Origin: Malacoraja senta
Taxonomy: Eukaryota
Assembly: GCA_038087875.1 (NCBI GenBank)
Contig: CM075990.1
Span: 16,184,001 to 16,248,000 of the forward strand
DNA length: 64,000 bases
Reading direction: 5' to 3'
Below the pieces are notes generated by a model. That model was not told the DNA's origin, searched no databases, and worked only from the letters and a program-made list of their open reading frames with translations. A program made the position numbers and the translations under genes. Below are positions 3,635 to 45,354 of the stretch, in pieces (positions within the stretch are counted from its first letter, which is position 1; every line of letters begins with the position of its first letter).

Positions 3635-3877
3635 CGTGGTAGAGTTCGTGGATATATCGTATGCTCGTTATGCCAGCTGTAGGTACTCGGGGCATCAGTT
3701 AAGTCGGGACGTCGGGCCTCCTATGGACTTGTTACAAACATTCTGCGAGTTTGAAAACTCGGGAGAATTCGTGAATAACTCAGGAGAATTCGTGAATAAC
3801 TCGGGAAAGTGGGACAGGCCCTTAAAGGGGAAAAGCCCGCAGAGATCAGGCATCAGACTATCTTGCCGTTAACACAC

Positions 3878-4052
3878 CACTTTCCACCGAGGCGCGGAGG
3901 GCTCCTGGATTGTGATGGAAGGCATCCTTCACATCAATCAACGTGAATGGAATCTTGTACGACTTCAGCTGGTTCCCTGCTGCAATCCCTCCAAATCCAC
4001 CACCGACCACCACAACATGGACCCCCTCGTCCACCGACACCGTGCCTCCCAT
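3878..4052 (-). CDS. AIFM2: AIFM2/FSP1 copy A, first coding exon
   Basis: ATG at 4052, acceptor 7 nt upstream (exon starts 4059), donor G|gtgtgt; MGGTVS (G2/S6 myristoylation motif), GGGFGG FAD motif, FHHN..ALRASVE. Confidence 0.95.
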
Positions 4053-5091
4053 GTCGTGTCTGGGGAAAAGAAAACATAGGGGAGGGGATGGGGGAGAAAG
4101 GATATTTTAACAAATGTGTTCAGAAGTAGCGATATTAGTTAGACAAACTGGGTCAGGCAGCATCAGGGGAGGGAATGGACAGGCAACGTTTCAGGTCAGC
4201 CATGATCACATTAAATGGCAGTGCTGGCTCGAAGGGCCGAATGGCCTACTCCTGCACCTATTGTCAGGACCCTTCTCCAGACCCGCTGAGTTCCTCTAGC
4301 ACTTTGTGCTTTACTCAAGATCCCACCATCTGCAGTTCTTTGTGTCTACATGGACTGGATTTTACAGCTTTGCATCAATAATAGAAAACAAATTCATATC
4401 AGAAGTGAGTAGGAAAGAACTGCAGATGCTGGTTTGAATCGAAGATAGACAAAAAATGCTGGAGCAACTCAGCGGGACAGGCAACATCTCTGGAGAGGAG
4501 GAATGGGTGAAGTTTCAGGGCGAGACCCTTCTTCAGACCCGAAACGTCACCCATTCCTCCTCTTCAGAGATGTTGCCTGTCCCGCTGAGTTACTCCAGCA
4601 TTTTGTGTCTACCTTCATATCAGAAGTAATAGGAGCAGAATTAGACCATTCGGCCCATCGCTTGGTTGTTAATTTCAAGCAACCAGCGAGAAAGTTAAAC
4701 TGTCTGGTAAGATTGAAAGATTGTCGAACTGAAAGGTGAACTCTGCTTCTCTCTGCGTGACCTGCTGAGTATTTCCACTGGGTTTGTCTTCTGTTTACAG
4801 CGTTGTGTTCTTCTGAATGTAGGCAGAACAGTAACCGCTAGGTGGGAGAAAGAAAACTCCGTTGACTGTCGCTGTTAGAAACAGTTCAACATACAAACCC
4901 GGTTAGCTGGAGCTGGAGCGGCGTTCTGTTGTTGCTGTTTTTAAACCAGCTGGTTAGTCCGGTTTGTAAACTGGTCCCAAACTCGCGTCCAAGTTCTTGT
5001 TGACTCGCGGAAGTAGACAAAATGTTGCTCTAATGTTAGTTTCACTTCAAACGTTACACTGGTGGAAATGTTCAAGTCAATAAAAGCTCAC

Positions 5092-8486: not shown

Positions 8487-10226
8487 CTAAGATGGGAGAA
8501 GTTCACAGCATCAGTCACCCGAGATCAGGACACCAATGACCGACATTACTCAGGGCTTTGGTGAACATACTATAGGCCCATAAAGACGCTGCCAAAAGCA
8601 AGGAAGGAAAAGAGATGAAATGTAAAGGAAGCAACCGGAGAAGCTGATTTACACTGAAGATAGACACAAAATCCTGGAGTAACTCAGCGGGACAGGCTGT
8701 ATCTCTGGAGGGAAGGAATGGGTGACGTTTCGGGTCGGGACAGAAGATGTGTCTCGACCCGAAACGTCATCCATTCCTTCTCTCCAGAGATGCCACCTGT
8801 CCCGTTAAGTTAATCCATCCAGCCTGTCCCGTTGAGACTCCAGATAGATAGTCTCTCCAGACTATCTATCTCCAACATAGATAGTCTTATCTAAGGAGAT
8901 GAAATGTAGTGTTTATGATGCCTGGAGCTTTAAATGGGATTTTTTGTGTTGCATGCCCTTACATTCTCTTTAAACTTTAGACTTTAGAGATACGGGCCCA
9001 ATTTCCTCTGTCAGTGCAAAGTTGCAATTTTTCACGAACCACTTTTGGCAAAACCACATATATTCTGACAGAAATCATATTTTTTAACGCGATTGAAATC
9101 TGAAGAAGGGTTTCGGCCCGAAACGTTGCCTATCTCCTTCGCTCCATAGATGCTGCTGCACCCGCTGAGTTTCTCCAGCATTTTTGTGTACCTCCTATCT
9201 CATTACATGACTTGCTGCTACAGTTCAGTCAGACAGCATACTGGATGGGCTGTGAGTTGCTCACAGGAGGTTGCACCACCTAGAGGTAAGATTCTGCTCC
9301 ATGCACTGAATGCAGAGACAAAGCTCAAGTACACTGAGGTGGGCACTTCGCAGCAAGAGAGTCAAGAATGTTTTGTTGTCATATGTCCCAGATAGAACAA
9401 TGACATTCTTACTTGCAGCAGCTTAACAGAATATGTAAAATTAGTACAGTGTAAACAATATTATAGAAAACAAAGTTCAGTGTGTGTAGATCTACACATA
9501 CCCACATATACATACAAACACACACAGATATATATATATATATATATAGAAATATATATATACATACAGTGTATATATACACACATGCACACATACATAC
9601 ACATAAAAAACAAACAATATTAGCGCAATAATAACAATAAAAGTCTATGTAGTTCAGAGCTTATTTGGAGTTTGTAGTGTTTAATAGCCTATTGACTGTA
9701 GGGAAGAAGCTGTTCCTGAACCTGGACGTTACAGATTTCAGGCTCCTGTACCTTCTTCCCGATGGCATGGGGTGAAATGAGTGAGTGGCCAGGGTGGTGT
9801 GGGTCTCTGACGATGCCCCTCAACCTTAGACCATTCATGAAGGGTTGCTTACCTTGCGAAAAAATGTTTTTTTCTTCTTCTTTATTTTACTTTATCTATG
9901 TTTAAGTTACATTTGGTTAAGGTATTTTAAATATTTTTTAAATAAACACTCCCCTCATCCTTTTACCACTCTTCCATTCTCTCTTTAACAAAACAACTAA
10001 ATTTGTGTGCAATTTTCCAAATGTTATCTAACCAAGGTTCTATATAGGGCTGAATGGCCTACTCCTGCACCTATTGTCTATTGTCTATTGTCTATGTAGG
10101 TTCCTAATACTTTTGAGTTCCCCCTAAATATTACCCTGAAATATCACAAACTATTTTACCATGTGAATTATGCTATTTAATTGACAACCATTTCAACCTT
10201 CTGGAGTGCGTTTCCAGCATATCTAC

Positions 10227-10427
10227 CTGGTTTGTACAGTTCCATGGGCTCATGTTTAATGTTATGGATGATATTTTTCACGCATGAGATGGCTTGGAAT
10301 TCAGCAGTATAAGCCGATTTATGTTCGTTCACATGTGCACAGTCGCCTATGGCAAAAACAATCCTCATTCCCTTCACGTTCAGATGTTCATCCACTAGTA
10401 TTGCATCGTGTTCAGTGAGGTTACCTT
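10227..10427 (-). CDS. AIFM2: AIFM2/FSP1 copy B, coding exon 7
   Basis: 201 nt, cag|AA...CCAG|gtag; GNLTEHDAILVDEHLNVKGMRIVFAIGDCAHVNEHKSAYTAEFQAISCVKNIIHNIKHEPMELYKP (GD motif). Confidence 0.95.
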
Positions 10428-10587
10428 CTGTTAAAGAGAAACAGTCACACAACTTACTCCACTTATACTCTCTCCTGTCCTATTGTAACTCTTAATGGTT
10501 ATTATACAGGGTTGGGGAGTGGAGAAATAACCCAGGTCAGGCACAAAACTGCCAATATGCAAAGAAAATCAGCCAGGTCCCCATACC

Positions 10588-14900: not shown

Positions 14901-15742
14901 ATTATATTGCATCTGTGGCAAAGCGCAAAGAAGTAGAGACAAGCCATCAGAAGCAATCTACAGCTTAATTCAGTACATGGAGAAGTATGAAGAGAAAAGT
15001 CACCAGCAGACTTAGGAACAGCTTCTTCCCCTCTGTTATGAGACTGAATGGCCCTCATAAGCTGGGATACTGCCCTTTTCACCTCCAGCCAATGGCAGAG
15101 ATTAGACATTGTCTACATTGCTGAGAAATATATTCTGCATTCTGTATCATCCCCATTGCTCTACCTATCGCACTTGAGTTGGACTTGATTGTATTTATGT
15201 ACAGTATTATCTGAACTGTTTGGAAAGCCTGCAAAACAAAGCTTTTCATTGAACGTGAAAATAATAACCCTAACTCTAAACCCAAGATTCTTTCTACATT
15301 ATGCAACGTGGTTACTCCTTAAGTCTAGGTGTTTTAAACCTTTAACTGTTTAAAACAAAAATGGAAGTTTAAGTCTCCAATATTTGCGCTGTATACATCC
15401 AACTCTGGGGGGGAAAAAACAAAGGCAACTTTAATGCATAAAAAATACACAGCTGAAATTGCACTGTTATTAAGTAAAGAAACCATGACAGAAGTTACCT
15501 TTTGTATTTCAGAGCTGCAGGGATTTTGATGGAGTAATTCCTCTCACGTGGTTATGGCATAAAGGCTTATGGCACATGGAGCTAAGATTCTTTATTTTAA
15601 CAGTTATAGTCAGCCAATGCTTTGCAAATGAAAGTGGAGTATGCATCACCATGAAACAAAGAACAGAGGTTCAGCACAAACTGTGCCACAGAGACAATAT
15701 AAGATCTTATACAAATGATAACAAATTGTGATTAGAACTTAC

Positions 15743-15895
15743 GGAAGGCGTTGACATATGCGGAAGAATTAATCTTTATTCCAGTACAACAGATAACCAT
15801 GTCTGCTATGATCTCGTGCCCCTTGTTTGTTAGCACTTTAATGTCTTTCAGGGCCTTATTCAGGTCTAGTTCTGACAGGTTATTGACTTTATGTC
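15743..15895 (-). CDS. AIFM2: AIFM2/FSP1 copy B, coding exon 6
   Basis: 153 nt, aag|GA...TTCC|gtaag; HKVNNLSELDLNKALKDIKVLTNKGHEIIADMVICCTGIKINSSAYVNAF. Confidence 0.95.
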
Positions 15896-16819
15896 CTTTT
15901 GGAAAGAACAAAATGCAAAATATAATGTGATTCAGATTGTCAGATAATCTTGCCCCTTTTTAGCTAATTGCCATTTTCTGGAACCAATAAAGATGAATGT
16001 TCTTGTGGGAATAGCAAGTGTCTCTGAGCCGTCGGTATAATTTTTATCTCAAATTGGAACACCGGTCGTAATAATGTTAGTGCGGGAACATAGAGTGTGA
16101 AACTGGAGAAGACAGACTAGCGAGAGAGGAGGCTCGAGAGACAGTACATGCTGGAATCTTGAGTAGAAAACAAAATGGTGGAAGAACTCAACAGGCCAGG
16201 CAGCATTTTAGAGGGGAAATGGACAGACATTTCAGGTCGAGACAGTTTGAAAAAGGGACCCATCCCAAAATCTTGCCTATCAATTTCCTTCCATGGGTGC
16301 TGCCTGACCTGCTGAGTTCCTCCTTACGTAGTTTCTTGCATTAGAGATAGATGCTGTATCTCTATTTTTTCCTTGGCTTGTTGTCAAATATCAAATATCA
16401 AATATAGTGGCCAGCTTTCGGAACAGGGCGCCATTTGGAGAGGCATGGAGATAGTCCAGTATTCTCACTTGGCTGAGCAAAGGCATGTGGTAGAGTCAAC
16501 CGCAGCATTAAAAAACTACAAAGTGCTGGAGTAACTCAGAGGGTCAGGCAGCCTCTCACGGTGACGTTACGGGTCAGGACCTTTCTTATCAAAATTATCT
16601 TTCAAAACTGCAGGATCAATTTCAAGGTGATCTTTCCATTGTGGGTGGAGTGGTATTTCACAATGGCTCTTTCAAAGGATCAGACACAAACATTGTTCAC
16701 AAAGAGAACATATCGTGAATTACAGGGCAACACGCAACAAGAAATATCTCTGCAAATCTTATTGTTACCGTCTTAACCAGAAATAAGTTAAGAGGGTAGC
16801 AAAATGTTTTGAAGCAATA

Positions 16820-21792: not shown

Positions 21793-24700
21793 TAATTCAA
21801 TTCAATTCAATTCAAAGCACTTTATTCGTCCCCGAGGGGCAATTTAAGAGGGCGTATTACAGTAGCTTTTTTTTTTAAAAAGGGACACAATCAACAAACA
21901 TAAGCAGCACGCATACTGCACAATCAACCAACACACGCATTTCACAGACACACTGCACAATCACACAAGACACACAGCACATCAACATTCAACACATAGT
22001 AATAGTTTTTAAAGTGCTTCCTTAGTGCTTCAATTAAAAAGTGCATATAGAAGGTTATTTCATTTCATATGTTCATGAGTCAGTGATCAGCATTAAGAAG
22101 CTGGACAGCCCTGGGGTTTAAGGTTGCCTTCCTCCTCTGTGTCCGGCAACCCGGACAGCGAAGTCTGCGTCCTGAGGGGAGCCACTCAAACTCAGGAAAC
22201 AGGATGTGAGAGGGGTCCTGAAGAATCCTGCGTGTTAACTTTACAGACTGTTGGTCGCATAGGGCAGTGAGAGTTCGGACGGGCTGCTCAATGATTTTTG
22301 AGCAGACCTTGACCACATTCAACAGGCGGTTTCTGTTTTGCAGGGTGATGGAGTGGAACCAGCTAGTGAAAGAGAAAGTTATTACATTTTCAATGTATGC
22401 GTAGTAGAATGTGGTGAGAATGTCTTTGTTAATCCCAAATGACTTCAGCTTCCTGAGTAGGTACTGTCTCTGATGGCACTTTTTAAGGATTTCCTCTGTG
22501 TTAGAGGAAAACCTTAGCAGGTTGTCGAAGGCTGTTCCCAGGTTTTTGTATACCTCCACTATCTCCACTGGCTCCTGCTGGATGATAGTGGTGGCTGCCT
22601 CAGCCATCTGTCTCTGTTGGGGGGAAAAGGTCACAATCATGTCCTTGGTTTTGCTTATATGTAGCTCAAGACAAGACTTTTCACACCATACTATAAAGGC
22701 CTGCAGGGCTGAGCTGTGATGTTGTGTATGGCTGGGAAGCAGAGACAGGAGGACTGTGTCATCAGCAAATTTTACAAAGAGGCGGTTTGGCTGGGTGGAT
22801 CTGCAGTCATCAGTGTAGAGAATGAAGAGAAGTGGGGAGAGGACACAGCCGTGTGGAGAGCCAGTGAAAGTGAAGAGGGTGTCGGACAAGGTATGGTTCA
22901 CCAACACCCTCTGTGATCTGTTGGTGAGGAAGTCTATAATCCACAGAGTGAGTTGGTGGTTGAAGGTGGAAGCGGGTGATGAGCTTCTCAGCCAAAATAT
23001 GTGGCTGCATGGTGTTGAATGCTGATGAGAAGTCTGCAAACAGAAGTCTGGCTGTGGTCTTGGGGATTTCCAGATGCTTATGGATGGTGTTTAAGATGAA
23101 TATCTTTGCGCCATCGACACCCCTGCCAGCCTGGTAAGCAAACTGCAATGGATCCATCATCGAGCCAGTTGCCTTGGTGATGTGCTCCTTGATAATCCTC
23201 TCCATGGCCTTCATGACCAGGGAGGTGAGAGAACACCTTGGTGGTGCCCTTCTTTGGGATGGGAATCACTGTTGAGTTTTTCCACATCGCGGGGACTGTG
23301 CTGCTGGTCAAAGAGCCCTGGAACAGATGCTGGAACACACCTCCCAGCTGCTCAGCACGGTGCCATAGGGTCTGCCCACAGATGTTGTCTGGCCCTGGAG
23401 CTGTGTTCTTTTTAGTCCTTTTGAGGGCTCTCACCACCTCTGATGTGTTGATGTTGAGGCCGGAGTCATCAGGTCTGAGTGTAGAGACGATTGATTCTAG
23501 CTGGGTGCTGTTGTCCTTTTCAAATCTGGTATAGAAGGAGTTGAGACCATTCGGGAGTGAAGTGAAGCTGCTTCCTGCAGAATTCACTTTAGAGACAGAG
23601 TTCACTGCTGCCATGTTCTTGAGGCCCTGCCAAGCTGCACGGAGGTTCCCTTTTCCAAAGGTCTGCTCCACTTTGTTCTTGTATTTCAGCTTGGCAATTT
23701 TTATGGCCCGCTTGACCTCCCTGTTTACCTCCTTCTTCTCAGCTACAGAACCGGTAAAAAATGTTCTCTTTTTCTTATTCAATATGTTTTTTAGATCTTT
23801 AGTCACCCAGGGTTTATTGTTAGGGAAGGTACACAAAAATGCTGGAGAAACTCAGCGGGTGCAGCAGCATCTATGGAGCGAAGGAAATAGGTAACGTTTC
23901 GGGCCGAAACCCTTCTTCAGACTGATAGAGGAGGAGAACTTCTTCAAAGTAGGCATACCTTGACGAGATTTCGCAGTGGAGTAGACAAAGTGTTAAAGAA
24001 GGAACTGCAGATGCTGGAAAATCGAAGGTACACAAAAATGCTGGAGAAACTCAGCGGGTGCAGCAGCATCTATGGAGCGAAGGAAATAGGTAACGTTTCG
24101 GGCCGAAACCCTTCTTCAGACTGATAGAGGAGGTTGTTTATTGTTAGGGAAGATTGTGACCTTCTTGGAGGGGATAATATTGTCTACACAGAAAGTGATG
24201 TATGCTGAGACTGTATCCGCTTGCTCACTGGTGTTGGTGGAGGAGGATGTGAGGGTATTCCAGTCTGTGGTTTCAAAACACCCTTGAAGCCTGTCAAAAC
24301 TGTCCGGTGTCCACTGTTTGATGTCCTTTCTCTGTTCTCTTTACCACAGGTGTATAGGCAGGAGCGAGCAGTATGCTGCTGTGGTCAGCAGAGCCTAGGG
24401 GAGGGAGGGAGACGGCTCTGTAGGCGTCTGGGACTGACCCATAGCATTTGTCCAGTGTTTTCCCTAGACGGGTGGTGCAATTGACATACTGGTAGAATCC
24501 TTTAAGTGACTTGTCAATTGAACAGTGATTGAAGTCACCCATGATGAATTTGGGGGCGTCCGGAGATATCAGTTCGAGTCTGTCGAGCATATTTCTTATA
24601 TGTTCCGTAGCAGTGGATGCATTTGCTCTGGGGTGGATATAAACCAGAATAAAAAACAGTTGTAGGAATTCCCTGGGAAGGTAGAAGGGACGCAGGGAGG

Positions 24701-25605
24701 CAGCCAAGAGTTCAATGTCAGGGTTGCACAGTTCTTCTCTGACAACAACTGTTTTGCACCAGCGTGGATTGATGTAGAGGCAGACACCACCGCCATGGTG
24801 CTTGCCAGTCAGTTCAGTATCACGGTCTAACCTTACAGGAGACCCAAAGCCATCTATGTGCATGCTGTCACTGTTGTCACTCCCAGTCAGCCATGTTTCA
24901 GTGAAAGCAAGAATGGAAGCAGTCCGGTATTCGTACATGTGAAAAACGTTAGCTTGCAGTTCATAAGTCTTGTTACGCAATGAGCGCACATTAGCAAGGA
25001 TCACTGAGGGAAGTGCACGGTGCTTACTTTCTCCTCGCCTAAGTCTTGCTTTAATTCCACCCTTCTTCTTCCTCCCCCATCTCGTTACCTTCTTCCTATT
25101 GTTGTGCAGGGTGCCTGTCCGGTCGGTTGGGAGTTTACATTGTAGCTCCTCCGGCAACTTGTCTATGGCAGGGGCTTGGTGAGAGTGAAATTGCAGCTGA
25201 AGTAAAAAGTCACTGCAGTAAGTAATCCGTTGGTTGTCCGGAAGAGTATATCCATATGATGCAGTGGGCAGATAATCCAAGACGAACAGTAGAAGCATAA
25301 GAGTCCATAGTGTCCATGTGAAGTCCATACTTTGGAGCAGTGAATGCAAAAAGCTAGCTGGCTAATTAACGTTAGCTCGTTGGTCCGGTGTGTGTGTGAG
25401 GTAGTGGCAGTGTCCGCACAACCACACCACGAAAGTACTGAACTATACGGCAGCAGTTGACCGTCAATCGATACCCGATATACTTAAAACGAAACAAAAC
25501 ACTCTCACAAACTCACGTAACGTAACGTAACGAAAAGACAAACATTCAAAGCTACTCTCTGCACCGACAGGTCGACCGCCCGAGCAGTGACCCGGAACCG
25601 GAAGC
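21793..25605 (-). mobile_element. Near full-length Rex1/Babar-like non-LTR retrotransposon (APE plus RT), frameshifted and interrupted, in an AIFM2-B intron
   Basis: APE motifs NVRSL, FTETWL, GGGVC, GDFN, DH (24294-25349); RT motifs PGPD, QFAY, DFSSAFNT, GCVLSPLLF, KFADDT (22080-23836); AATAAA plus (TTGAA)n 3' tail. Confidence 0.9.
23829..24135 (-). mobile_element. Tandem (199-nt period) hammerhead-bearing Penelope-like repeat nested in the Rex1-like LINE
   Basis: Identical cores at 23893-23920 and 24092-24119; 17-bp TSD GTTTATTGTTAGGGAAG at 23812 and 24136. Confidence 0.8.
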
Positions 25606-28965: not shown

Positions 28966-29769
28966 TTACTTTCAGGTTACCTCAAGCATAATGGGTACGT
29001 TCACACCCTAAGCCAGATGTCCATTGAAAGTTGCATCAGGCAGGCTTTTGGCATCAGTGACATCAATGATGTGGCCACCAAGCCCACCAATAATCAGACG
29101 AAAAAAGGTAGTCAACGTTGCAAATTGCCCCAGTTGCGTCCCAACGGAAGAACAATGATGTATTGGTAATAATAGAATGGATCTATCTATCCCACAGGAG
29201 ATTCAGTGGTTGGGAGTGCAGACAATGGAAACCTGGGCTGTATAACGTTTCTGTGGAATGGACAGTACTGATGAACCATACAGATATTTCCCATCCTCTC
29301 TCTCTTGTGGAGTGAAAGTAAAATAGCAATGATTATTTGATTGGTATGGGTGTCAGGGGTTATGGGGAGAAGGCAGGAGAATTGGGTTGAGAAGGAAGGG
29401 TAGATCAGCCATGATTGAATGGCAGAGTAGACTTAATGGGCCGAATGGCCTAATTCTGCTCCGAGAACACATGACGGTGAGAATAAAGTGTGTCAGCTAA
29501 ACTCGTAGGAAGAAACTGCAGATGCTGGTCTAAACCGAAGATAGACACAAAATGCCGGAGTAACTCAACGGGACAGGCAGCATCTCTGGAGAGAAGGAAT
29601 GGGTGACGTTTCGGGTCAAGACTGCTCTTCAGGATCTCGACCCGAAACGTCACCCATTCCTTCTCTCCAGAGATGCTGCCCTTCGTGCTGAGTTACTCCA
29701 GCATTTTGTGTCTATTATCAGATAAACAAACTCGTTGGTTTACTCAACCACAATCCACATTAACATTAC

Positions 29770-29889
29770 CTCCTGTACCAAATCTTCATACATCTGGATG
29801 GCAGTTTCTCTACTAATCGGTTCAATTAATTTCCCAGGGAATGGGCCTGTGCTTCCAGTTGCCAGAATAAGATGTGTATAATGTATGAC
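29770..29889 (-). CDS. AIFM2: AIFM2/FSP1 copy B, coding exon 3
   Basis: 120 nt, aag|GTC...GAG|gtaatg; [40 protein letters not shown]. Confidence 0.95.
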
Positions 29890-30009
29890 CTTCAAAAGAC
29901 AATAAAATTTGACAAGTTTATTGGGATTGAAATGTGTGATAATTAACTTAACATTCAAAGATATTTCTGACAAATTCCATTATTAAAAGATCTGAAGTAT
30001 TATTTTTAC

Positions 30010-30125
30010 CTCTCCATTCTCCATTATAACGTTCTGGCCGTCCAGATCAATATCACTGACTTTACCTTGTTTGAAGTTCTCTTTGAATGTCTGGTCATAT
30101 GATATGAATGTTTTCTTTGCAAACC
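30010..30125 (-). CDS. AIFM2: AIFM2/FSP1 copy B, coding exon 2
   Basis: 116 nt, tag|GG...GAG|gtaaa; [38 protein letters not shown]. Confidence 0.95.
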
Positions 30126-31033
30126 CTAAATAAAAATATGCACGACATAGGTGGTATGAAAGTGTTAAGAACATCATGAGATATAGGGAGGAAGATATAT
30201 CACCCATTGCAGTTGCCCCTTACAAAATACAATATATTGTCTCATACTAAAGCCGTTGAATGTAAAGGATAAGTAGTTGACCTTATATTTAAGACTTGAA
30301 TGTTTGGAGTTATTTGCTCTGGAGACTGTAACCTATAACCTATAACTGAACATTATTTTTGGATGCTACATGTAGTCATGATGCTTACAGCAAATACAAA
30401 AGCCCTTGGTGAGACCACACTTGGAGTACTGTACACAACTTTTCTCACCTTACCTGCAGAAAGATATACTTGCTGCAGCTGGAGTGCAGTGGATTTACAC
30501 AAGTGGTTCCATGGATGACAGGTGCATCATTTGAGGGGTTATTGAGTTGGTTGGGCCCCTATTCTGAAGAAGGTACCGACCAGAAACGTCACCTATCCAT
30601 GTCCTCCAGAGATTCTGCCTGACCCGTTGGGTTACTCCAGCACTTTGTGTTTTATTCAAGTTTCCAGTATCTGCAGTTCCTTGTGTTGCCCTCTTCCCTC
30701 GTTTTGTACAATATGAGGTGACCTCACTGAAACATTCTCTGGGGGGTCTGTGAGAGGAGAGTTGGAGTGGATGTCCCCTGGCTAAAGGGTCGAGAACTAG
30801 GAGTCACAGCCTCAAAATAAGAGAGTGAGGAACAATGTCTTCACCCAAAAGGTGATGAATGTTTGGAGTTATTTGCTCTGGAGACTGTGAGGGCTTAGTC
30901 AATGATTCCATTCAAGACTGAGATCAGGTTTTTGAACCTGGGACAGGGTGTGAAAATGGTGCCAAGGTAGAAGATCAGCCATGATCTTAATGAGAGGCAG
31001 AGCAGGCACAAGGAACCATATGAACTACTCCTG

Positions 31034-31772: not shown

Positions 31773-33139
31773 ACTCCTGATTCTACTATGTTCTTCTGTC
31801 TCTGAGGAATTGTAAATGGAATGGATCATTATGTACAGGAAGGAACTGCAGGTGCTGGTTTACACCGAAGATAGACACAAAATGCTGGAGTAACTCAGCG
31901 GAACAGGCAGCATCTCTGGAGAGAAGGAAAGGGTGACGTTTTGGGTCGAGTCCCTCCTTCAGAGGGAGTTACCGAGATAAGGAAGTGTAAGTTAAATGAG
32001 ATGCAGATCAAGGAATATGTAGAAGAGACCATTGTTAGCAAGTCTTCAGTCAACTTCCTCATAGTTGCCCTCATCAACGAAGGAAGATCATTGTTGAAGT
32101 AGCTGAAGGAGATTCAAGAGACTGAGGAATTCCTGCAGCAATGTTCTTGGGCTAAGGTTGATGATTTTCACCATTCCAGGTCACACACAATGCTAACATG
32201 GGTATGGACTGCCATTCACTGTTGTTGGATCTGAATCCTGCAATTCACTGCTGAAAATTCAGTGGGAGGACCTCCCCCAGAAGGACTGCTGTGGTAGTGG
32301 TGAGATACCTTCTTGAAGGTAATTAAGGAAGGCTTAGAAATGGTGGTCTTGCTAGTGATGACCCAGACTCCAATACTGAGTAAATCATTCCCCAGATGTT
32401 GGTGAGGATGACTTTGCAAGATCACTTGGCCGAGAGTGACATTATCATGCTGGTACCCGGGTTGATGCTGAATGATTCATTAGTTTTATTCCTGATCTTT
32501 TCGGGGAGGCTGCCTCAATTCAACCAAGCGGCTTGTTGGGCCATTTCAGGAGGAGCACTTGAGAGGTCATTGTTGGTGGGCCTGGAGCCATACAGTAAGG
32601 ACTGTGGATTTCTTACCCTGCAGGACATGAATGAACCAGTTGTGCATTTACCACACTCCAGCAGTTTCATGCGGCTAGATATTTTTAAATTAACTCGACA
32701 TAGGAGTGGTGGGTGTATCGAACAGGCTGCCAGAGGAGGTAGTTGAGGCAGGGACTATCACAATGTTTAAGAAACAATTAACCAGGTACATGGATGGGAC
32801 AGGTTTAGAGGGATATGGACCACGCACAGGCAGGTGGGACTAGTGTCGCAGGGGCATGGAGGCCAGCATGGGCAAGTTGGGCCGAAGGGCCTGTTTTCAC
32901 ACTGTATGACTATAAATGAGATCGCAAATGATTTCAAAACCCCAAAGAATAAAAAGGAGATAGTTAACATTTTGAATTTTCTGTACTTTCTGCTGATGCA
33001 ACCTTAACCTGTTCACTGCCAAGATGTTTTTTCACGTGTATGCTGACCCGAGTATTCTCGGGGGTGGCACTGAACAGGTTAAACCACGTCAATGTAATCC
33101 ATGTATGTATTTCGGGGCCCTTATTTTCCTCCAGTTTAC

Positions 33140-33314
33140 CTTCCTGTACCGATGCTCTCAGTGCACCCATGTTGTGATGGAAGGCGTACTTTATGTCAAT
33201 GAGTGTGTATGGGATCCTGTAGTTTGACAATTGCTTTGCTGCTGCTATCCCTCCAAAGCCTCCGCCGACTATGACGACATGTTCATTTTTACCGACGGAC
33301 AATCTCCCTCCCAT
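33140..33314 (-). CDS. AIFM2: AIFM2/FSP1 copy B, first coding exon; the 8 exons sum to 1122 nt (373 aa plus stop) with no disruption
   Basis: ATG at 33314, acceptor with exon start at 33321, donor G|gtaaa; MGGRLS myristoylation motif, GGGFGG, FHHN..ALRASV. Confidence 0.95.
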
Positions 33315-34418
33315 TGCGTCTCTGTTCGAAGGAGAGAAAGTGGAAGAATCAAAATAGAATTCGAGGAACCTACATTTTGGTTCAGTTTAGTTTAGTTTGG
33401 AGATACACCTCAAAAACGGGCCCTTCGGCCCACCGATTCCGCACCAACCAGCGATCCCCGCACATTAACACTATCCTGCACACACTATCCTGACAATTTA
33501 CACATACACCAAGCCAATTAGCCTACAAACCTGTACGTCTTTAGAATGTGGGGGGGAAACCGAACATCTCGGAGAAAGCAGAGTTGCCTGATGGTACAGG
33601 CTCCGCAGGTAGAAGGTACAGGAGCCTGAAATCTGCAACATCCAGGTTCAGGAATAGCTGCTTCCCCACAGCCATCAGACTATTAAACACAACTTCAAAC
33701 AAACTCTGAACTATAACAGCCTATTGCACTTTATCTGTTTATTTATATGTGTATATATATATATATTCTATGGTATGGGGTCACACTGATCTGTTCTGTA
33801 TTTATGCCTACAATATTCTGTTGTGCTGCAGCAAGCAAGACTTTCACTGACCTATCTGGGACACATGACAATAAACTCACTTGACTTGACTTGACTTAAC
33901 ATTATAGGTCAACAATGCTTCATTAGCACTGGGATGAGACCATCCTTCATCACCCTTGGGGTGGTACGAAGCTATTTGAACTAAAGTTCACTATGAGGTT
34001 TCTTCCTTTAAGACTATTTTAAAAAACAATAGCAATAATGGCAGTAGGAAATAACGTTAAATAATATAACAGTTCAAAGTTCATAATATAAAAAGTTCAA
34101 AGATAAAGTCATTTTAAATCCTGCCTGGTTGCTCTGTTTTTTACCAAAGCATATTTTAGTTTATACCGAAGATAGACACAAAATGCTGGAGTAACTCAGT
34201 GGGTATTGCACTCTCTGGAAACAAGTAATAGATTATGTTTCGGGTCTCAAGAAGGGTTCTGACCCGAAACATCACTGATTCCTTTTCTCCAGAGATTCTG
34301 CCTGACGCACTGAGTTACTCCAGCATTTGGTGTCTATCTTTGGCATAGGGTATGCTTGCCTTCATCAGTCGGGACATTGAGTATAAACATTGAGACGTCT
34401 TGAAGTGTTGGTTGGCAT

Positions 34419-34618
34419 NNNNNNNNNNNNNNNNNNNNNNNNNNNNNNNNNNNNNNNNNNNNNNNNNNNNNNNNNNNNNNNNNNNNNNNNNNNNNNNNNN
34501 NNNNNNNNNNNNNNNNNNNNNNNNNNNNNNNNNNNNNNNNNNNNNNNNNNNNNNNNNNNNNNNNNNNNNNNNNNNNNNNNNNNNNNNNNNNNNNNNNNNN
34601 NNNNNNNNNNNNNNNNNN
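34419..34618. other. Assembly gap (200 N, probably a fixed-size placeholder)
   Basis: Run of N; the genes on both sides lack their 5' ends. Confidence 0.99.
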
Positions 34619-34706
34619 TTCACAATAGATGAGTAAATAACCAACCAAATAAGTGATGATGTAGAAGGAACTTGGTCATTCATTTTGATTTTGTTTATCT
34701 TCTTAG

Positions 34707-34774
34707 GCAAACGACCCCGACTCAGAAATGTGGGGAGAAGTCAAGTACTCTATACATGGAGCAGGAGCAGATCT
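34707..34774 (+). CDS. CDHR1: CDHR1 (photoreceptor cadherin) internal exon, about human exon 14
   Basis: 68 nt, tag|GCA...CT|gtaagt; ANDPDSEMWGEVKYSIHGAGADL (cadherin AxDxD motif). Confidence 0.92.
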
Positions 34775-36347
34775 GTAAGTAATATTATTCCTCAAAGTCG
34801 CTGTAGGATTAAATGGGGCAGTTCCCACGCCTGAAAATAAATCACACGGGACGAGACTCTGTTCGATTTCCAACGGTCAAGTTACATTGAGCATCAGAAT
34901 AGTTTTCCCAGTCATTTAACAGGCCAACACATTTATTGTGAGGACCATTTGCAGCGGATCTTTGTTCAGCTTGAAGCTACTCCATGTCTGTGGACACTCA
35001 GTGGGGTCTGAGTCATTTTGATTTGAGCCCGATTCTTCCCAGCTGTTATCAGGCAACTGAACCATCCTACCACAACCAGAGAGCAGTGCTGAACTACTGT
35101 CTACCTTATTGGTGACCCTCGGACTATCCTTGATCGGACTTTGCTGGCTTTACCTGGCACTAAACGTTATTCCCTTATCATGTATCTGTGCACTGCAACT
35201 GGCTGGATTGTAATCACGTATTGTCTTTCCGCTGACTGATTAGCACGCAACAAAAGCTTTTCACTGTACATCGGTACACGTGACAGTAAACTAAACTGAA
35301 CACTGGTATCATTGATTAAGCTGCAAAAATAACAGACAACATTGTTTGATCAATAGAGCAATAATGGCACTTTATAATACATCGATGTTGCTGTGATTTC
35401 AGAGTAATTTTGTAAAAATTGCGCTCTTTTATCCGTTTTTTAAAATAAATATTTGTTTTAAAATCAGTTTTGAACTGGATGCGTCTGTGCCTGTTGCATT
35501 AGCTCTCCACCTAGTGGGCACTCAGCTACACTGCATGGTTCCTTTAGCATCCCTGACAACGTCTGAAAATGATCAAGCATTAAACACGTTTAATTATTAA
35601 CCAGAACCAGAATAATAAAATTATTATAGCTATACAGGAAGATTAAATGCAATGCCACAGTACAATCAGTGTATTATTTGATTTGGAGAGGAACCAGCAG
35701 TAGATGGTTCTCCAACTCATCTGCTGGGACCTTATTGGTGGTAGGGATCATGGGTTTAGGAGATGCCATTGGAGTAACCCTGTAGCATACCTTGTAGACG
35801 ACAAGCTGTTCACCCGCTGTTGAAGGGCGGAGAGAATGAAGACACCAGCAACTACAGATGCCCAAATCTTGAGCAAAACACAAAGTGCCGGAGAAACTCA
35901 GCATGTCAGGCAGCATCTGTGGAGGGAATGGATAGGTGATGGATTGGGACCCATCTGAAGACTGGAAACATCACCTATCCATTTTCTCCCATAGATGCTG
36001 CCTAACCCACTGAAGAATGGTCTTGACCAGAAACGTCACCCAATCCTTCTCTCCAGAGATGCTGCCTGTCCTGCTGAGTTACTCCAGCTTTTTGTGTCTA
36101 TCTTCGGTTCCTCCAGCAATTGTGTGTAAGATCAAGCGGGGAATAGATAGGGTAAATGCACAGAGCCTTTTACCCAGAGTAGAAGAATCAAGAACCAGAG
36201 GATATAGTTTTAAGGTGAGAGGGGAAAGATTTAATAGGAGGCTAAAGGGGGAACATTTTCACACAAAGGGTGATGGGGATATGGAAGGGATGCCAGACGA
36301 GGTCATTGATATTATCACAACATTTAAAAAGATATTTGAACAAGTAC

Positions 36348-36820: not shown

Positions 36821-37049
36821 ATTTCTGATTCACCCAAGCACAGGAGTTATTTACACTCAGCCCTGGGCTGAGCTGGATGCTGAAGAACAGTCCAAGTACA
36901 ATTTTCACATCAAAGCAGATGATGTGGAAGGGAAACACAGCTTGGCCGAGGTCTTTGTAACAGTTCTCGATGTTAACGACCACTATCCAGAATTTATGGA
37001 GAACTTTTTGGACAAAGTTATGATTATCGGATCACCTGTAAAAGTTGAG
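36821..37049 (+). CDS. CDHR1: CDHR1 exon, about human exon 15
   Basis: 229 nt, cag|A...GAG|gtacg; [21 protein letters not shown]...[13 protein letters not shown]...PVKVE (LDAE and DxND motifs). Confidence 0.95.
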
Positions 37050-37146
37050 GTACGCAACCAGAGCAAAATAATGCGTTACATTTGTTTTGCCCGAGTATGC
37101 AAATGGATGCACAAGATCAGAATTTATAGAGCTTACAAACTATATA

Positions 37147-38758
37147 CAGTGGCTTGCAAAAGTTTTCATACCCCTTGAACTTTTCCACATTTTGTCACGT
37201 TACAACCACAAACGTAAATGTATTTTATTGGGATTTTATGTGATAGACCAACACAAAGTGGTGCATAATTGTGAAATGGAAGGAAAATGATACATGGTTT
37301 TCAAATTTTTTTACAAATAAAAAACTGAAAAGTGTGGCATGCAAAAGTATTCAGCCCCCCTGAGTCAATACTTTGTAGAACCACCTTTTTCTGCAATTAC
37401 AGCTGCAAGTCTTTTGGGGTATGTCTCTACCAGCTTTGCACATCTAGAGACTGAAATTTTTGCCCATTCTTTGCAAAATAGCTCAAGCTCAGTCAGATTG
37501 GATGGAGAGCGTCTGTGAACAGCAATTTTCAAGTCTTGCCAGAGATTCTCAATTGGATTTAGGTCTGGACTTTGACTGGGCCATTCTAACACATGAATAT
37601 GCTTTGATCTAAACCATTCCATTGTAGCTCTGGCTGTATGTTTAGGGTCGTTGTCCTGCTGGAAGGTGAACCTCCGCCCCAGTCTCAAGTCTTTTGCAGA
37701 CTCTAACATGTTTTCTTCCAAGATTGCCCTGTATTTGGCTCCATCCATCTTCCCATCAACTCTGACCAGCTTCCCTGTCCCTGCTGAAGAAAAGCATCCC
37801 CACAGCATGATGCTGCCACCACCATGTTTCACAGTGGGGATGGTGTGTTCAGGGTGATGTGCAGTGTTAGTTTTCCGCCACACATAGCGTTTTGCATTTA
37901 GGCCAAAAACTTCAATTTTGGTCTCATCTGACCAGAGCACCTTCCTCCACATGTTTGATGTGTCCCCCACATGGCTTGTGGCAAACTGCAAACGGGACTT
38001 CTTATGGCTTTTTTTCAACAATGGCTTTCTTCTTGCCACTCTTCCATAAAGGCACGATTTGTGGAGTGCACGACTAATAGTTGTCCTGTGGACAGATTCT
38101 CCCACCTGAGCTGTGGATCTCTGCAGCTCCTCCAGAGTTACCATGGGCCTCTTGGCTGCTTCTCTGATCAATGCTCTCCTTGCCCAGCCTGTCAGTTTAG
38201 GTGGACGGCCATGTCTTGGTAGGTTTGCAGTTGTGCCATACTCTTTCCATTTTCGGATGATGGATTGAACAGTGCTCCGTGAGATGTTCAAAGCTTGGGA
38301 TATTTTTTTATAACCTAACCCTGCTTTAAACCTCCACAACTTTATCCCTGACCTGTCTGGTGTGTTCCTTGGGCTTCATGATGCTGTTTGTTCACTAATG
38401 TTCTCTAACAAACCTCTGAGGCCTTCACAGAACAGTTGTATTTATACTGAGATTAGATTACACACAAGTGGACTCTATTTACTAATTAGGTGACTTCTGA
38501 AGGCAATTGGTTGCACTGGATTTTATTTAGCGGTATCAGAGTAAAGGGGGCTGAATACTTTTGCACGCCACACTTTTCAGTTTTTTATTTGTAAAAAAAT
38601 TTGAAAACCATGTATCATTTTCCTTCCACTTCACAATTATGCGCCACTTTGTGTTGGTCTAGCACATAAAATCCCAATAAAATACATTTACGTTTGTGGT
38701 TGTAATGTGACAAAATATGGAAAAGTTCAAGGGGTATGAATACTTTTGCAAGCCACTG
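37147..38758 (-). mobile_element. Full-length Tc1 (DD34E) DNA transposon, 1612 bp, IR/DR type
   Basis: TA|CAGTGGCTTGCAAAAG...CTTTTGCAAGCCACTG|TA; about 213-bp TIRs with inner and outer direct repeats; TA target duplication. Confidence 0.97.
37365..38379 (-). pseudogene. Tc1 transposase with one frameshift near codon 17
   Basis: ATG at 38379 gives MKPKEHTRQVRDKVVE, then shifts into the 37365..38339 ORF; GRPPK, WSDETK, QQDNDPKH, SPDLNPIE with 34 residues between D and E. Confidence 0.92.
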
Positions 38759-40443
38759 TATGTCTTGTAATAATATGAAGGGTCACAGAGCAGAGGACTT
38801 TGGATTTGAATCATTAGGCAGAGCTTTAACAGATTGAGGAAATACATTGCTACTGATTTATTATTGTCACGTGCATGAGATACAGTGAAAAAACAATGCT
38901 ATCCAGTGAAATTATACTGTACATGAGTAAAATCAAACTGTACACGTCCAACAGATAGTACAAAGAGAAAAAAATACCAGAGTGCAGAATATAGTGTGAC
39001 ATTGTTATAGCATTTTAATTACAGGGAAAGTGCATATTAAAAAAGTACAAGGGCGCTATTAGATAGGTTGGGAGATCAGGATTCCCCCTTGTTTATAGAG
39101 GACCATTCAGCATCCTGATAACAGCAGGTAAGAAGCTGTTCCTGAATCTGGTGGTATGTGCTTTCAAACTTTTGTATAGACTGATCGACGGGAGAGGAGA
39201 GACGAGGGAATGACTGGGCTGTAAATGGTCCTTGAATGGAATGGAATACGTTATTGTCACATGTGACAAGGCACAGTGAAATTCTGTGCTTGCATATCCA
39301 AGGTATACAAACAGCTGCCACATAAAGGGCACTGACAACGTTACTAAGTACCCCCGCCGGATCCTCCTTTGTTCTCCCCCCACCCCTCCCCTCACCTCCC
39401 CCCCCCACTTGTGGTGGCCCCCCCACACCGAGTCCTCCATTGTTCTTCCCCTCCCCCCTTCACAACGGTTCCACCGCGCCCTCATCAACCGCCGCGCCGC
39501 GGGTCGACCGGAATGGAGGTTGGTACTGGGCTTCCTCATCCATGCCCCAGTATCGGGTACCATTGCCACAAATCTGGTGGCATCGTGTGTTTGTTGTTTC
39601 ACTGAGGATGGGGCATCAGCAAGTACCTCTCCGATTAAGGCATTACTGTTAATGATATCTGTTACCAGATGTTAACAGAACCAGCGACTAGAATTTGGGG
39701 ATCAACTTTTATTACAGAAACTGGGGACTTCTAATCCAATTAATGAAAAAAATCTTGATTAAGTAATATACAAGATTGTGACTGAATTAGATAGGGTGGA
39801 CTGGGTGAAACTGTTCTCTTTAATGGGTAGGTTTAAAACCTGATGGATCACAGCAATACCCATGAAAACAGACCCTCTGGCCCATTGAGCCCTTGACATC
39901 AAACACCCATTTACACTAATTCCTCACTAATCACATTTTCTCATCACATTCCCATCGACTGCTCCCAAATTCTACCACTCGGATATAAAATGGAGGTAAC
40001 CTACAACGGATAATTAACCAAACAACTACAGGTCTTTGGTATGTGAAAGGAAACCAAAATGGTCACACAAAAACATGCTGATTATGCTGCCAAATTTCTC
40101 ACGTTGCCCAGCACATCTCCTTTAAACTTTGCCCCTCTCACCTTAAAGCCATGCCTCCAGTGTTTGTCATTTGCACCTGGGAAAAAGGTTTAGACTGTCT
40201 ACCTCATCTACTCCCCCTGATTTTTTGGCCCCTCCATTAAGGAAAGTAAGTATTTCCTAATTACTCCCTTGAGGTCCCTTATGCCCCAATTAAATACCCG
40301 GTCAGCCCTCTCAGTCCTAGCCCACCCAAACATTTCTCATTGCTACCCGTTTCCCATTTCTGCTGGATCCCTCTATTCCCTGCTCCATGTGAGAGTGTTG
40401 GAGAGAAGTAATTGAGTCACCTGAGCCAAACTTTTAAACGCAG

Positions 40444-40698
40444 GCCAAAGACGAGGATGCCGAGGAACCGAATAACATTGTGGACTACTCGATAATGCAA
40501 GGAGACCCAGCCAATGTCTTTGACATCGACCAAGCCACGGGGGAGATCATGTTGAAGTCCTACATCAGGTCCCTGGAGGTCATTCACAACATCACCAAGA
40601 CCAGGGGCGGCCACTGGTCACTAGTGGTGCAAGCTAAAGACCGAGGCTCGCCTTCCTTCAGCACCACAGCGGTCGTGAGAATCGACATCACGGAGGAG
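40444..40698 (+). CDS. CDHR1: CDHR1 exon, about human exon 16 (last cadherin repeat)
   Basis: 255 nt, cag|GCC...GAG|gtaggt; [17 protein letters not shown]...[23 protein letters not shown]. Confidence 0.95.
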
Positions 40699-42384: not shown

Positions 42385-43690
42385 CATTACATTACAACCG
42401 ATTACATTAGTACTCGTCACGTATATCTTATTACAATTAATGTACTCCGTCATTTTTTACACTAATAAAGGGAAAGGATAAGATTGAGAGAAAGGAGAAA
42501 GTGAAGGAAAAAAGTGAAAGTGTAAAAAACATGACAACAAAAAAGAACAAAGACCCTATAAGAAAGATTTTTTTTTTTTAAATAATTAAGAAATAGACCC
42601 TAAAAAAGAAGAAAAAAGAGAAAGAGGGAAAAGAGTTGTAAGCATCACGCAAATGGGATATACCAACTCTCCAGCTTTCATCCCCCCTTACCTGACCTCA
42701 GTTTTTTTTTAAGTACTTTTGCACCCTATACTTGTAATAATTCTATAAATGCAGACCACGTCAGGTGGAAGTGATCTGGTTTACCTGCCAGGAGGAGTCT
42801 TATCTCTTCTAGGTGTAATGTTTCGAACATATTTGAAATCCACATGTTTATAGTTGGTATTGGAGCATTTTTCCAGAATTTTAGGATTAACTTTTTTCCA
42901 GTTATTAACCCATAGTCTATTAATTTCTTTTGGAACACATTTAGTTCTGGACTATCTTCCGTTGTTCCGAAGATCATCCATTCTGCTTTGGGTATCAGTT
43001 TTATTTTAAATAATTTTGTAAAGATTTCAAAAATTTCAATCCAAAATTTTCTGAATTTTTGTACAGAAAACAAATGAGTGCGCTATAGTAGCTTCTTGAG
43101 ACTGACATTTATCACAAATGGATGATACATTTGGGAACATTTTATTAATTTTAGTTTTGGAATAATATAATCTATGTAAAATTTTAAATTGTATTAAAGT
43201 GTGTCTTACATTAATCGAACATTTATGCACGTTTAATAAATGTTCATTCCACCTTTCCTTTGAGATTTTAATAGCTAATTCTTGTTCCCAGTCTCTTCTA
43301 ATACCTTCCGTAGATGGTATTTCTACATTTAAGATAATATTATACAAATATGATATTAAGTTTGCTGATTCAGCTTTTATCTGCATTGGTTCATCCAATA
43401 CATCTGTTGGGCTATTATAATGATCTTTTGTATATTTTTTCAAATAGTCACATATTTGAAAATATTTAAAATATTGATTATTTCCCAGTTTATATTTTAT
43501 TTGTAATTGTTGGAATGATAGTAATTTTCCAGTTTCATACAAGTCACCGAACGTTTTAATTCCTAGTCTATCCCATTGTATAAAAGATTTGTCTGTAATA
43601 GAGGGATTAAACGAAGGGTTATTAACTATTGGAGATAAAAGCGATAGATTTCTTAATTTTAAATTTTGTTTTATTTGTTTAAAATAAAAT
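42385..43690 (-). mobile_element. 5'-truncated L1-clade LINE (ORF2 C-terminus)
   Basis: ORFs 43036-43707 and 42726-43073 with QFKILHRLYY and the zinc knuckle CDKC...HSFVFC; one frameshift. Confidence 0.85.
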
Positions 43691-43763
43691 AAAATAAAAG
43701 AGCACAAGTTTGCTCAAGCATTCTGATGAGCGTCACTGAACTCTGATGTTTTAACATTTCCAG

Positions 43764-43961
43764 ATTAAATCAAGGTTAAACTCATATATTTTGGGTCTAA
43801 GGAACCAGCCGTGGAGAATATTTAGGATTTGTGTGAGCACAATCATTCTCATCGTTTCTGTAACAGTGATTATTTCTGCCCTGATGTTCTGGAAAACTGC
43901 GAAAATGTCCCGTGTACACCCAAGCAGCAAGATCCGAAAAATTGTCAAAGGACCAGCATGA
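43764..43961 (+). CDS. CDHR1: CDHR1 candidate alternative transmembrane/short-tail exon (paralogue of the terminal exon)
   Basis: tttccag| acceptor, phase 0 matching the preceding exon, 65 open codons: IKSRLNSYILGLRNQPWRIFRICVSTIILIVSVTVIISALMFWKTAKMSRVHPSSKIRKIVKGPA*; aligns with the start of the terminal exon. Confidence 0.75.
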   Translation: MKSRLNSYILGLRNQPWRIFRICVSTIILIVSVTVIISALMFWKTAKMSRVHPSSKIRKIVKGPA

Positions 43962-44256
43962 AAGGATGTGGCTGATTAGTGACAGAGCTGGGCTCTACTT
44001 CCACTCAAACTCCATCCAATGGACCGGGTGCAGAAAATAGACCCAGTGGGGCATTGTGATGATCTAGGTACTCTACACTGGGTCTATGCCAGTGGAACAG
44101 CAGAAATCCAGTGTCACGTAGCTGAGTAAGTCGCAGTTTTCTGTGTCTCATAGAGTTATGGAGCCACAGAGTCAGAGTCACACAGCACAGAAACCCAACT
44201 CCAATCCAACGTGTCCTTTGGACTAAATCTCTTGTGTTTTTTGTACTCTTTTACAG

Positions 44257-44820
44257 ACTTCTGGCAAAGGGCATTTGGCAGACTTTTTGTTGCAATCTAA
44301 AGATAACCCCATGCAAGTCGTAGGAGTGGTAGCTGGAATCATTGGCTTTTTTGTGGTTCTGACTGTCATGATTTCATCGGTCATGTTCTGGCGGAACAAG
44401 AAGTCCAATAGAATTGGTCCGGTGAGACGAATCATAAAGCGACGGTCCGGCTGGAAGCTGCAAGCACGACGATCGAAGTGGTTCCACAGCAAGAAGTCGA
44501 CCCAAACGCGAGGCAGCTTCATGACTTCAACGGGAGACCAGCACCTGCCGACTGTTAGCAGCCTCAACAGCCGCCCAGCACTTCAACTGGCTTTGCCAAG
44601 AGCACCCATGCTTCCTCCCCCCATATCTACGCACCCAACCAGACTCCATAAGCCCAAACGAGACATCCCATCCGTGTCAGGGACCATCAGTCCCAAAAGA
44701 AGCTGCGTCCCCCAGCAATCAAAGGGCAAGGCATCGAACATCAACAGCGCTCTGGTGTCAGAACTCAAAATGCGTCTGGAGAGAAAAATGAATGAAGATG
44801 CTTCCAGGTTGTACTTGTAG
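44257..44820 (+). CDS. CDHR1: CDHR1 terminal exon (transmembrane plus long cytoplasmic tail)
   Basis: ttttacag|ACT; TSGKGHLADFLLQSKDNPMQVVGVVAG...MFWRNKKSN...SGTISP...ALVSELKMRLE...LYL*; AATAAA at 44944 and 45003. Confidence 0.95.
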   Translation, partial: TSGKGHLADFLLQSKDNPMQVVGVVAGIIGFFVVLTVMISSVMFWRNKKSNRIGPVRRIIKRRSGWKLQARRSKWFHSKKSTQTRGSFMTSTGDQHLPTVSSLNSRPALQLALPRAPMLPPPISTHPTRLHKPKRDIPSVSGTISPKRSCVPQQSKGKASNINSALVSELKMRLERKMNEDASRLYL

Positions 44821-44822
44821 GA

Positions 44823-44917
44823 GGTACACAAAAATGCTGGAGAAACTCAGCGGGTGCAGCAGCATCTATGGAGCGAAGGAAATAGGTAACGTTTCGGGCC
44901 GAAACCCTTCTTCAGAC
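44823..44917 (-). mobile_element. Penelope-like terminal-repeat insertion with hammerhead core (44888-44915) at the CDHR1 stop codon
   Basis: 13-bp TSD TGTACTTGTAGGA at 44810 and 44918. Confidence 0.8.
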
Positions 44918-45354
44918 TGTACTTGTAGGAAGTTTGAATGCACAATAAATTTGAGTATTGATATGATTGAAATGTTTTATTGATGCTTTCTATTTGTGTT
45001 AAAATAAATCATGCTTAACAGGTCACAGGATTCAAAGGCACTGCATCAATCTCAATACATGCATAAAGTACATGATTTTCACTTGAAAATCGCCCATAAT
45101 TGCAGGGCCTTGGAGACCAGAACATACAACATGTGTAGATTCTAGATGAAATAGATATAGTGATGAGCGTCAGAGATGGAGAGGGAAGAGGGCCAGGGAG
45201 TCCAGAGTGATCGGAGAACACAATAGTTTCAGAAGTGGATAGATGTTACTCCAAGCACAACATGGCCACAATGACGTGTATAAAACTTCTCTCAGCTCCC
45301 AAAACATTGATGCTTATTTCCAGTCTTCCTCGTGATTGCAGGCAATAATGTCAA

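Follow-up and report, generated by a model that had tools for sequence, protein, structure and literature searches.

The window, by which we mean the whole 64-kb stretch of Malacoraja senta DNA analyzed here, contains the end of a gene that, judged from its sequence matches, is CDHR1 (photoreceptor cadherin), and this gene carries both of the terminal exons discussed below. Tblastn with the Leucoraja erinacea X1 isoform recovered four forward-strand exons in order, at 34689-34784, 36822-37061, 40441-40698 and 44254-44817, and the Narcine short isoform X4 matched the same first three followed by 43761-43976. The first of these (34689..34784) is a partial match to an upstream cadherin-repeat exon, corresponding to residues 481-510 of Leucoraja X1 and 495-524 of Narcine X4, and the second (36822..37061, approximate limits) is a further cadherin-repeat exon with 92.5% identity to residues 508-587 of Leucoraja X1. 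The exon at 40441..40698 is the last one common to both isoforms and encodes the end of cadherin repeat 6 (...VVRIDITEE); it is 98.8% identical to Leucoraja X1 and matches the Pfam family Cadherin (PF00028, E 1.9e-11). It ends ...ACGGAGGAG, its last codons being ATC ACG GAG GAG (ITEE), and is followed by the donor GAG^gtaggt at 40698/40699 (here and below, ^ marks a splice boundary). An assembly gap, a run of 200 N at 34419-34618, immediately precedes the first CDHR1 exon recovered, and the earlier CDHR1 exons are absent from the 64-kb window.

The canonical terminal coding exon occupies 44257..44820 on the same strand, with 187 codons and a TAG stop at 44818-44820 behind the acceptor ttttacag^ACT at 44257. 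Its product comprises a juxtamembrane part, a transmembrane helix and about 141 residues of cytoplasmic tail; identity reaches 93% with Leucoraja erinacea CDHR1 X1 and 85% with Rhinoraja. A search with this exon returned 147 proteins at E ≤ 0.001, and in the best 120 of these 147 the named ones are nearly all CDHR1. No Pfam family matches either terminal exon, alternative or canonical.

Several other features share the window with CDHR1. Beyond the assembly gap, reverse-strand oxidoreductase exons at 3861-4106, 10180-10479, 15732-15959, 29740-30219 and 32967-33386 look like two tandem pyridine-nucleotide-disulphide oxidoreductase genes with GGGFGG N-termini; three of these stretches gave weak Pfam Pyr_redox_2 matches (E 9e-6 to 1e-4), and we take the tandem genes upstream of the gap to resemble AIFM2/FSP1. 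The CDHR1 intron between 37061 and 40441 holds, at 37368-38375 on the reverse strand, an uninterrupted 336-aa open reading frame (ORF) for a transposase of the Tc1/Sleeping-Beauty type (Pfam HTH_Tnp_Tc3_2, E 6e-24; DDE_3, E 4e-14; HTH_SB, E 1e-13), which may be a young copy. Retrotransposon fragments matching Pfam RVT_1, Exo_endo_phos and zf-RVT lie on the reverse strand at 22083-23090, 24297-25361 and 43039-43713, the last of which ends 50 bases upstream of the acceptor of the alternative exon. Between 40702 and 43721 the repeats are covered to very high depth by sequencing contigs. The exon region also occurs a second time, in opposite orientation on the separate contig C6017 (14259-17453), with 99.56% identity along 3195 bases; this copy is most probably an allelic scaffold left unmerged, and we dismissed a paralogous second genomic copy.

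The earlier note on this DNA had described a phase-0 frame of 65 codons with a good acceptor about 500 bp upstream of the canonical exon, and that frame is present: its acceptor lies at 43764, 493 bases ahead of 44257. A 68-aa stop-to-stop frame spans 43755..43961 on the forward strand, with an AG acceptor, ttccag^ATT, at 43764. Behind this acceptor the candidate alternative last coding exon (43764..43961) comprises 65 codons, IKSRLNSYILGLRNQPWRIFRICVSTIILIVSVTVIISALMFWKTAKMSRVHPSSKIRKIVKGPA, and a TGA at 43959-43961. The region just upstream of it (43744..43763) reads ctgatgttttaacatttccag and is pyrimidine-rich, and no change is listed at 43715-43763, which takes in this acceptor region, in the DNA of a related skate. 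Both acceptors, 43764 and 44257, keep the frame in phase 0 from the donor at 40698. The predicted peptide divides into an extracellular juxtamembrane part (residues 1-17, 43764-43814), a hydrophobic helix (residues 18-43, 43815-43892) and a basic tail (residues 44-65, 43893-43958). Its Kyte-Doolittle maximum over 19 residues is 2.73, at residues 22-40, which bears out the hydrophobic core described in the earlier note. The tail after W43 has 22 residues, with seven K/R and no D/E, so that the expected pairing of a basic tail of about 22 aa with one of about 145 aa holds, the canonical tail being about 141 residues. One helix, a short basic tail and then a stop is the layout of a short isoform.

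The end of this exon differs between skates and other elasmobranchs. Directly behind the TGA, at 43962..43979, stand the codons AAG GAT GTG GCT GAT TAG (KDVAD and stop), which match the ...KVAD-stop ending of shark and ray proteins and appear to be the former coding end. Both Malacoraja senta and the related skate have their TGA six codons ahead of the TAG that sharks and Narcine use, and the old codons are still intact behind the TGA of Malacoraja senta; the tblastn match of Narcine bancroftii X4 passes straight through that TGA to 43976. The early TGA in both skates indicates that the extreme end of the short tail is not strictly conserved.

Frame length says little about whether the exon is real. 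Within 43400-45200 there are 31 overlapping open frames of at least 40 aa, so the length of the ORF at 43764 is by itself unremarkable, and this abundance is what would favor a chance open frame, or a disused and decaying remnant of an ancient exon duplication. The case that the frame is not there by chance is carried instead by homology and conservation. When the 65-residue peptide was searched against longer proteins, three NCBI isoforms, each of 753 aa, proved to have the alternative exon as their C-terminus: Narcine bancroftii X4 (XP_069741542.1, 83% identity over the exon), Cetorhinus maximus X2 (XP_078386963.1, 80%) and Stegostoma tigrinum X2 (XP_048419205.2, 78%), with E values of 1e-23 to 3e-25 in a database of 5.8 billion proteins. 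All three models carry the junction RIDITEE^IKSRL, and across the short models generally the junction reads ...ITE(E/A)^(I/V)K(S/G)R; in the orthologous gene models, then, the same ectodomain is spliced to this exon, as the earlier note had proposed for the skate. Over 62 residues the skate exon is 61% identical to gar and 53% to bird. Identities of this order, with the E values above, leave next to no room for a chance frame or a dead relic, and the pattern of divergence described below leaves less.

The exon is widespread among vertebrates. A HMMER pass over 1.84 billion representatives returned nine short ORFs with 32-55% identity to the alternative exon, most of which read through a "...FQ^IK(S/G)R" acceptor as the frame in the window does; such read-through marks them as the alternative exon in other genomes. 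A profile of 10 exon peptides run against longer proteins gave 78 matches at E ≤ 0.01 among 8000 scored candidates, and these are CDHR1 isoforms of about 707-796 aa with a best E of 1e-31 in bony vertebrates. They come from many teleosts, Amia ocellicauda, Lepisosteus oculatus, Zonotrichia albicollis and the snake Liasis olivaceus, and no mammal or amphibian is among the profile matches listed. Teleosts have the exon in both paralogues, cdhr1a and cdhr1-like, which agrees with the mention, in the earlier note, of similar segments in teleost CDHR1 models. The 90%-identity cluster around the Zonotrichia match has 44 members, and the 15 that are listed comprise 13 birds, Pelodiscus sinensis and a lizard; most of the listed members are about 750 aa (Pelodiscus X2, 752 aa; Dromaius X4, 748 aa), and the cluster also contains other CDHR1 isoforms. 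A search of the protein atlas gave no usable match for the alternative exon.

Among 221 collected proteins, 65 are at least 600 aa long and end 50-85 residues after an [IL]D[IL]TE[AE] motif. All 65 of these short models, of about 750 aa, terminate at the alternative exon's own stop, and at the protein level this in-frame stop of the upstream exon would enforce one anchor per protein. Most of the supporting short CDHR1 proteins are automatic gene models. For three proteins, of 742, 707 and 747 aa, the full short coding sequence lies on contigs of 2816, 2958 and 2693 bases, which have no room for introns and are therefore most likely assembled spliced mRNAs of the short form. In two Narcine bancroftii CDHR1a models at NCBI, X1 and X2, the CDHR1 ectodomain is fused at ...ITEE with the greater part of the retinal G-protein-coupled receptor RGR, which is how a 90%-identity cluster comes to mix CDHR1 and RGR proteins; these fusions reflect either read-through transcription or a model artefact. 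RGR as a downstream neighbor, which the fusion models suggested, was not retained, as tblastn at E ≤ 1e-3 did not find it in the window.

Selection on the exon was assessed with one DNA contig of a related skate, which spans 43715-44815 with 67 differences and 6 gaps. The alternative exon (198 bases) has three listed changes, L5 TTA>CTA, I19 ATA>ATC and V61 GTC>GTT, all of them synonymous; the count is at least three, because there are 26 entries beyond those listed, of which, as we reckon from the totals per run and from a second run with the same listed changes, nearly all lie past 44549 and up to about 5 could lie earlier. The fast-evolving spacer at 43962-44256 (295 bases), of which 43980..44256 leads up to the canonical acceptor, has 24 listed substitutions and all 5 listed indels, and the canonical exon at 44257-44549 has 12 listed changes, 5 of them non-synonymous. 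Listed changes in the exon and the spacer differ by Fisher test at p = 0.001. At the spacer rate, 12.2 replacements would be expected over the 150 non-synonymous sites of the exon and none is found among the changes listed (Poisson P = 5e-6), and the synonymous rate of the exon, 0.067, is near the spacer's 0.081, again on listed changes. Over 62 residues the alternative exon also shows marginally higher conservation than the beginning of the canonical one, with identities to the skate of 84 versus 79% in Narcine, 82 versus 77% in Cetorhinus and 79 versus 76% in Stegostoma. These comparisons support purifying selection on the alternative exon in the form of a protein-level constraint, and they agree with the earlier proposal that the intact frame is under selection. 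An unused relic would hardly show only synonymous listed changes beside a spacer with 8% divergence and every listed indel.

The alternative exon had been taken for a duplicate of the canonical transmembrane exon, and this reading stood up well. BLASTP of the two exon peptides of the window gave 19 of 61 identical residues with one 3-residue gap (E 2e-10), and the ungapped register gave 17 of 56. When profiles built from 60 distinct alternative tails and 78 distinct canonical exon starts were aligned with hhalign, the match extended over 56 ungapped columns with a probability of 97.1%, an E value of 6.1e-11 and a score of 54.4. Controls scored far lower, at 15.5 for the reversed canonical alignment and at most 21.7 for 30 column shuffles, which argues that the similarity is not just one of hydrophobic composition. 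The consensus residues common to both exon families are P16, G21, T34, I37, S38, T39, K47, R50 and P53. With the two exons 493 bases apart, in the same phase and homologous, the arrangement is that of a tandem duplicate. The DNA of the two exon regions shows no alignment outside the coding part, and a recent segmental duplication was ruled out by this lack of DNA similarity in the flanks.

A maximum-likelihood tree was computed from 30 segments, 15 of each exon type, picked from 138 to span taxa with the others left out; it separates the two types with support of 100/100. Elasmobranchs and bony vertebrates occur within each exon-type clade, so the duplication would be older than their split, which took place more than about 450 million years ago. 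The simplest reading of these sequences is one tandem exon duplication before cartilaginous and bony vertebrates diverged. Ab initio models that chain the alternative ahead of the canonical exon in Lonchura (933 aa), Atractosteus (903 aa) and Gymnothorax (864 aa) indicate that the exon order is the same in bird, gar and eel. The occurrence of the exon in elasmobranchs, holosteans, teleosts and sauropsids, together with the split in the tree, upholds the suggestion that it is an ancestral feature of jawed vertebrates.

How the two exons would be used in the mRNA can be approached through the signals around them. Between the alternative stop and the canonical acceptor (43962-44256) there is no AATAAA, ATTAAA, AGTAAA or TATAAA, and AATAAA first occurs past the canonical stop, at 44944 and 45003. 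This lends no support to an independent terminal exon, and of the earlier term "duplicated terminal exon" the duplication stands and the separate terminal exon is not shown. Position 43764 may instead serve as the more upstream of two alternative acceptors for a single long last exon. By the sequence and by the orthologous models, the donor at 40698 can be joined to the acceptor at 43764 (proximal) or to that at 44257 (distal). Splicing to the proximal site would end the reading frame after 65 codons, leaving the canonical exon untranslated in the short mRNA. Given that no poly(A) signal separates the exons, this mRNA most likely continues through the canonical exon, which would then form its 3' UTR; the alternative would be a self-contained terminal exon. 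We infer splicing of 40698^43764 in Malacoraja senta from the orthologues and from the selection on the exon. No run on record as RNA contains the 43764..43961 stretch. One dataset presumed to be RNA, which is a guess, has two contigs on the canonical exon at 44347-44808 and nothing elsewhere in CDHR1, and the sequencing contigs examined have no joint touching 40698, 43764 or 44257, which is uninformative either way.

The same layout, in which no poly(A) signal follows the exon and the canonical exon becomes a long 3' UTR, is one known from unproductive splicing, and it is what would speak for a "poison" acceptor: the proximal site would then serve only to lower the amount of full-length CDHR1, and the short protein would have no role. 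Against this, the constraint acts on the amino acids: the listed changes in the related skate are 0 non-synonymous against 3 synonymous, 60 distinct sequences ranging from sharks to birds retain the motif skeleton, and the stop falls at nearly the same place in all lineages. We consider a poison acceptor highly improbable.

A different use of the exon would be as an internal cassette spliced into the canonical exon, which would give a protein with two membrane helices. The deposited Lonchura, Atractosteus and Gymnothorax models do join both exons in frame, but they are genome-project models under protein accessions or locus tags rather than NCBI XP isoforms, and each has a different join point inside or behind the alternative exon, whereas the 65 models of about 750 aa all stop at that exon's own stop. 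The donor-like sites in the window (44068 and 44126, in the spacer) come only after the stop, and in the related skate they are struck by substitutions or insertions and thus not conserved; with two helices, moreover, the long tail would presumably end up on the wrong membrane side. We regard the cassette, which would need a donor ahead of that stop, as extremely improbable, and rejected it along with the chance ORF and the dead relic.

On this evidence, we put at roughly 90% the probability that 43764..43961 is the skate orthologue of a deeply conserved CDHR1 alternative last coding exon, which would replace both the membrane anchor and the tail. The exon is already known in the sense that public gene models from sharks to birds include it, which makes it an ordinary discovery. 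The description of it as "hidden" has to be withdrawn, since the short isoform is in dozens of NCBI models and a human isoform 2 is recorded in passages of PMC6201214. According to these passages, human CDHR1 isoform 1 has 859 aa and isoform 2 (NP_001165442.1) has 745 aa, and the two are identical over the first 680 aa, which include all six cadherin repeats. Subtracting the 680 common residues from 745 leaves a 65-residue alternative end at the same junction, and, from the lengths alone, the end of human isoform 2 (NP_001165442.1, NM_001171971) is most likely the alternative exon.

The full-text literature outside subscription journals yielded no study of the short CDHR1 isoform. Mentions of the human short form in the available text were confined to PMC6201214 and to a table in PMC9368980, in which NM_001171971 serves as a variant reference transcript. 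A zebrafish study (PMC13090022) describes CDHR1 as a protein with a single transmembrane and a single cytoplasmic domain, and its text uses neither "isoform" nor "splice"; its discussion asks whether ectodomain cleavage is rod-specific or differs between rods and cones. Extracts of PMC3688712 report CDHR1 expression in human skin and keratinocytes, and in those extracts no isoform detail is given.

The sole open interest, in our view, is the function of the short form, which is unstudied despite its long conservation. Loss of CDHR1 causes cone-rod dystrophy, and what the protein does at the molecular level at the outer-segment base is still under debate. The short form would keep the six-cadherin ectodomain, swap the membrane-proximal stretch and drop whatever the long tail binds. 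The membrane-proximal stretch is also where, we take it, the known shedding of the CDHR1 ectodomain takes place. The short form would be expected to remain adhesion-competent and, with its juxtamembrane stretch, helix and tail all replaced, to differ in turnover, shedding, sorting or partners. It could, for example, resist shedding or sort differently, to cones and calyceal-process contacts as against rod disc rims, or serve in skin. The polar helix face T-x2-I-S-T, kept in both exons, points to a possible common partner inside the membrane. That both anchor exons have been kept because they give two functionally different cadherins from one ectodomain is a tentative idea that we think possible and would not yet favor.

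A second anchor exon retained since before the split of cartilaginous and bony vertebrates would mean two CDHR1 proteins, one of which functional work has ignored. If the two anchors do differ functionally, all knock-out and tail-directed antibody studies would have missed it. Antibodies raised against the long tail would miss the short CDHR1 form, and variants in the alternative exon would score as intronic on the main transcript.

The closest relatives of the skate exon are the terminal exons of Narcine X4, Cetorhinus X2 and Stegostoma X2, which share its junction (ITEE^IKSRL), helix and basic tail and differ in running six codons further, to ...KVAD and stop. Human CDHR1 isoform 2, in what PMC6201214 makes available and compared by lengths alone, resembles the skate form in its 65-residue alternative end at the same junction. 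The bony-vertebrate short isoforms, such as Lepisosteus oculatus X3, Amia ocellicauda X2, Zonotrichia albicollis X2, Pelodiscus sinensis X2 and Liasis olivaceus 2-T2, also have the same junction; they are 31-61% identical to the skate exon and have the common consensus K-R--SY-LGL---P--VFGI...T--IST......VKKSR--P...K--RR. The canonical CDHR1 exon is in the same phase and has the skeleton P....G............T..IST.......K..R..P in common with the alternative exon, and the two differ in tail length, about 141 residues in the canonical against 22 in the alternative. Outside CDHR1, PCDH15 is a cadherin-superfamily gene whose splice forms CD1 to CD3 differ in the cytoplasmic domain. The long and short forms of Pcdh10, as presented in part of PMC9040349, are likewise alternative intracellular ends on one ectodomain, as in CDHR1. 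Unlike in Pcdh10 and PCDH15, the duplicated exon of CDHR1 also swaps the membrane helix and the extracellular juxtamembrane stretch.
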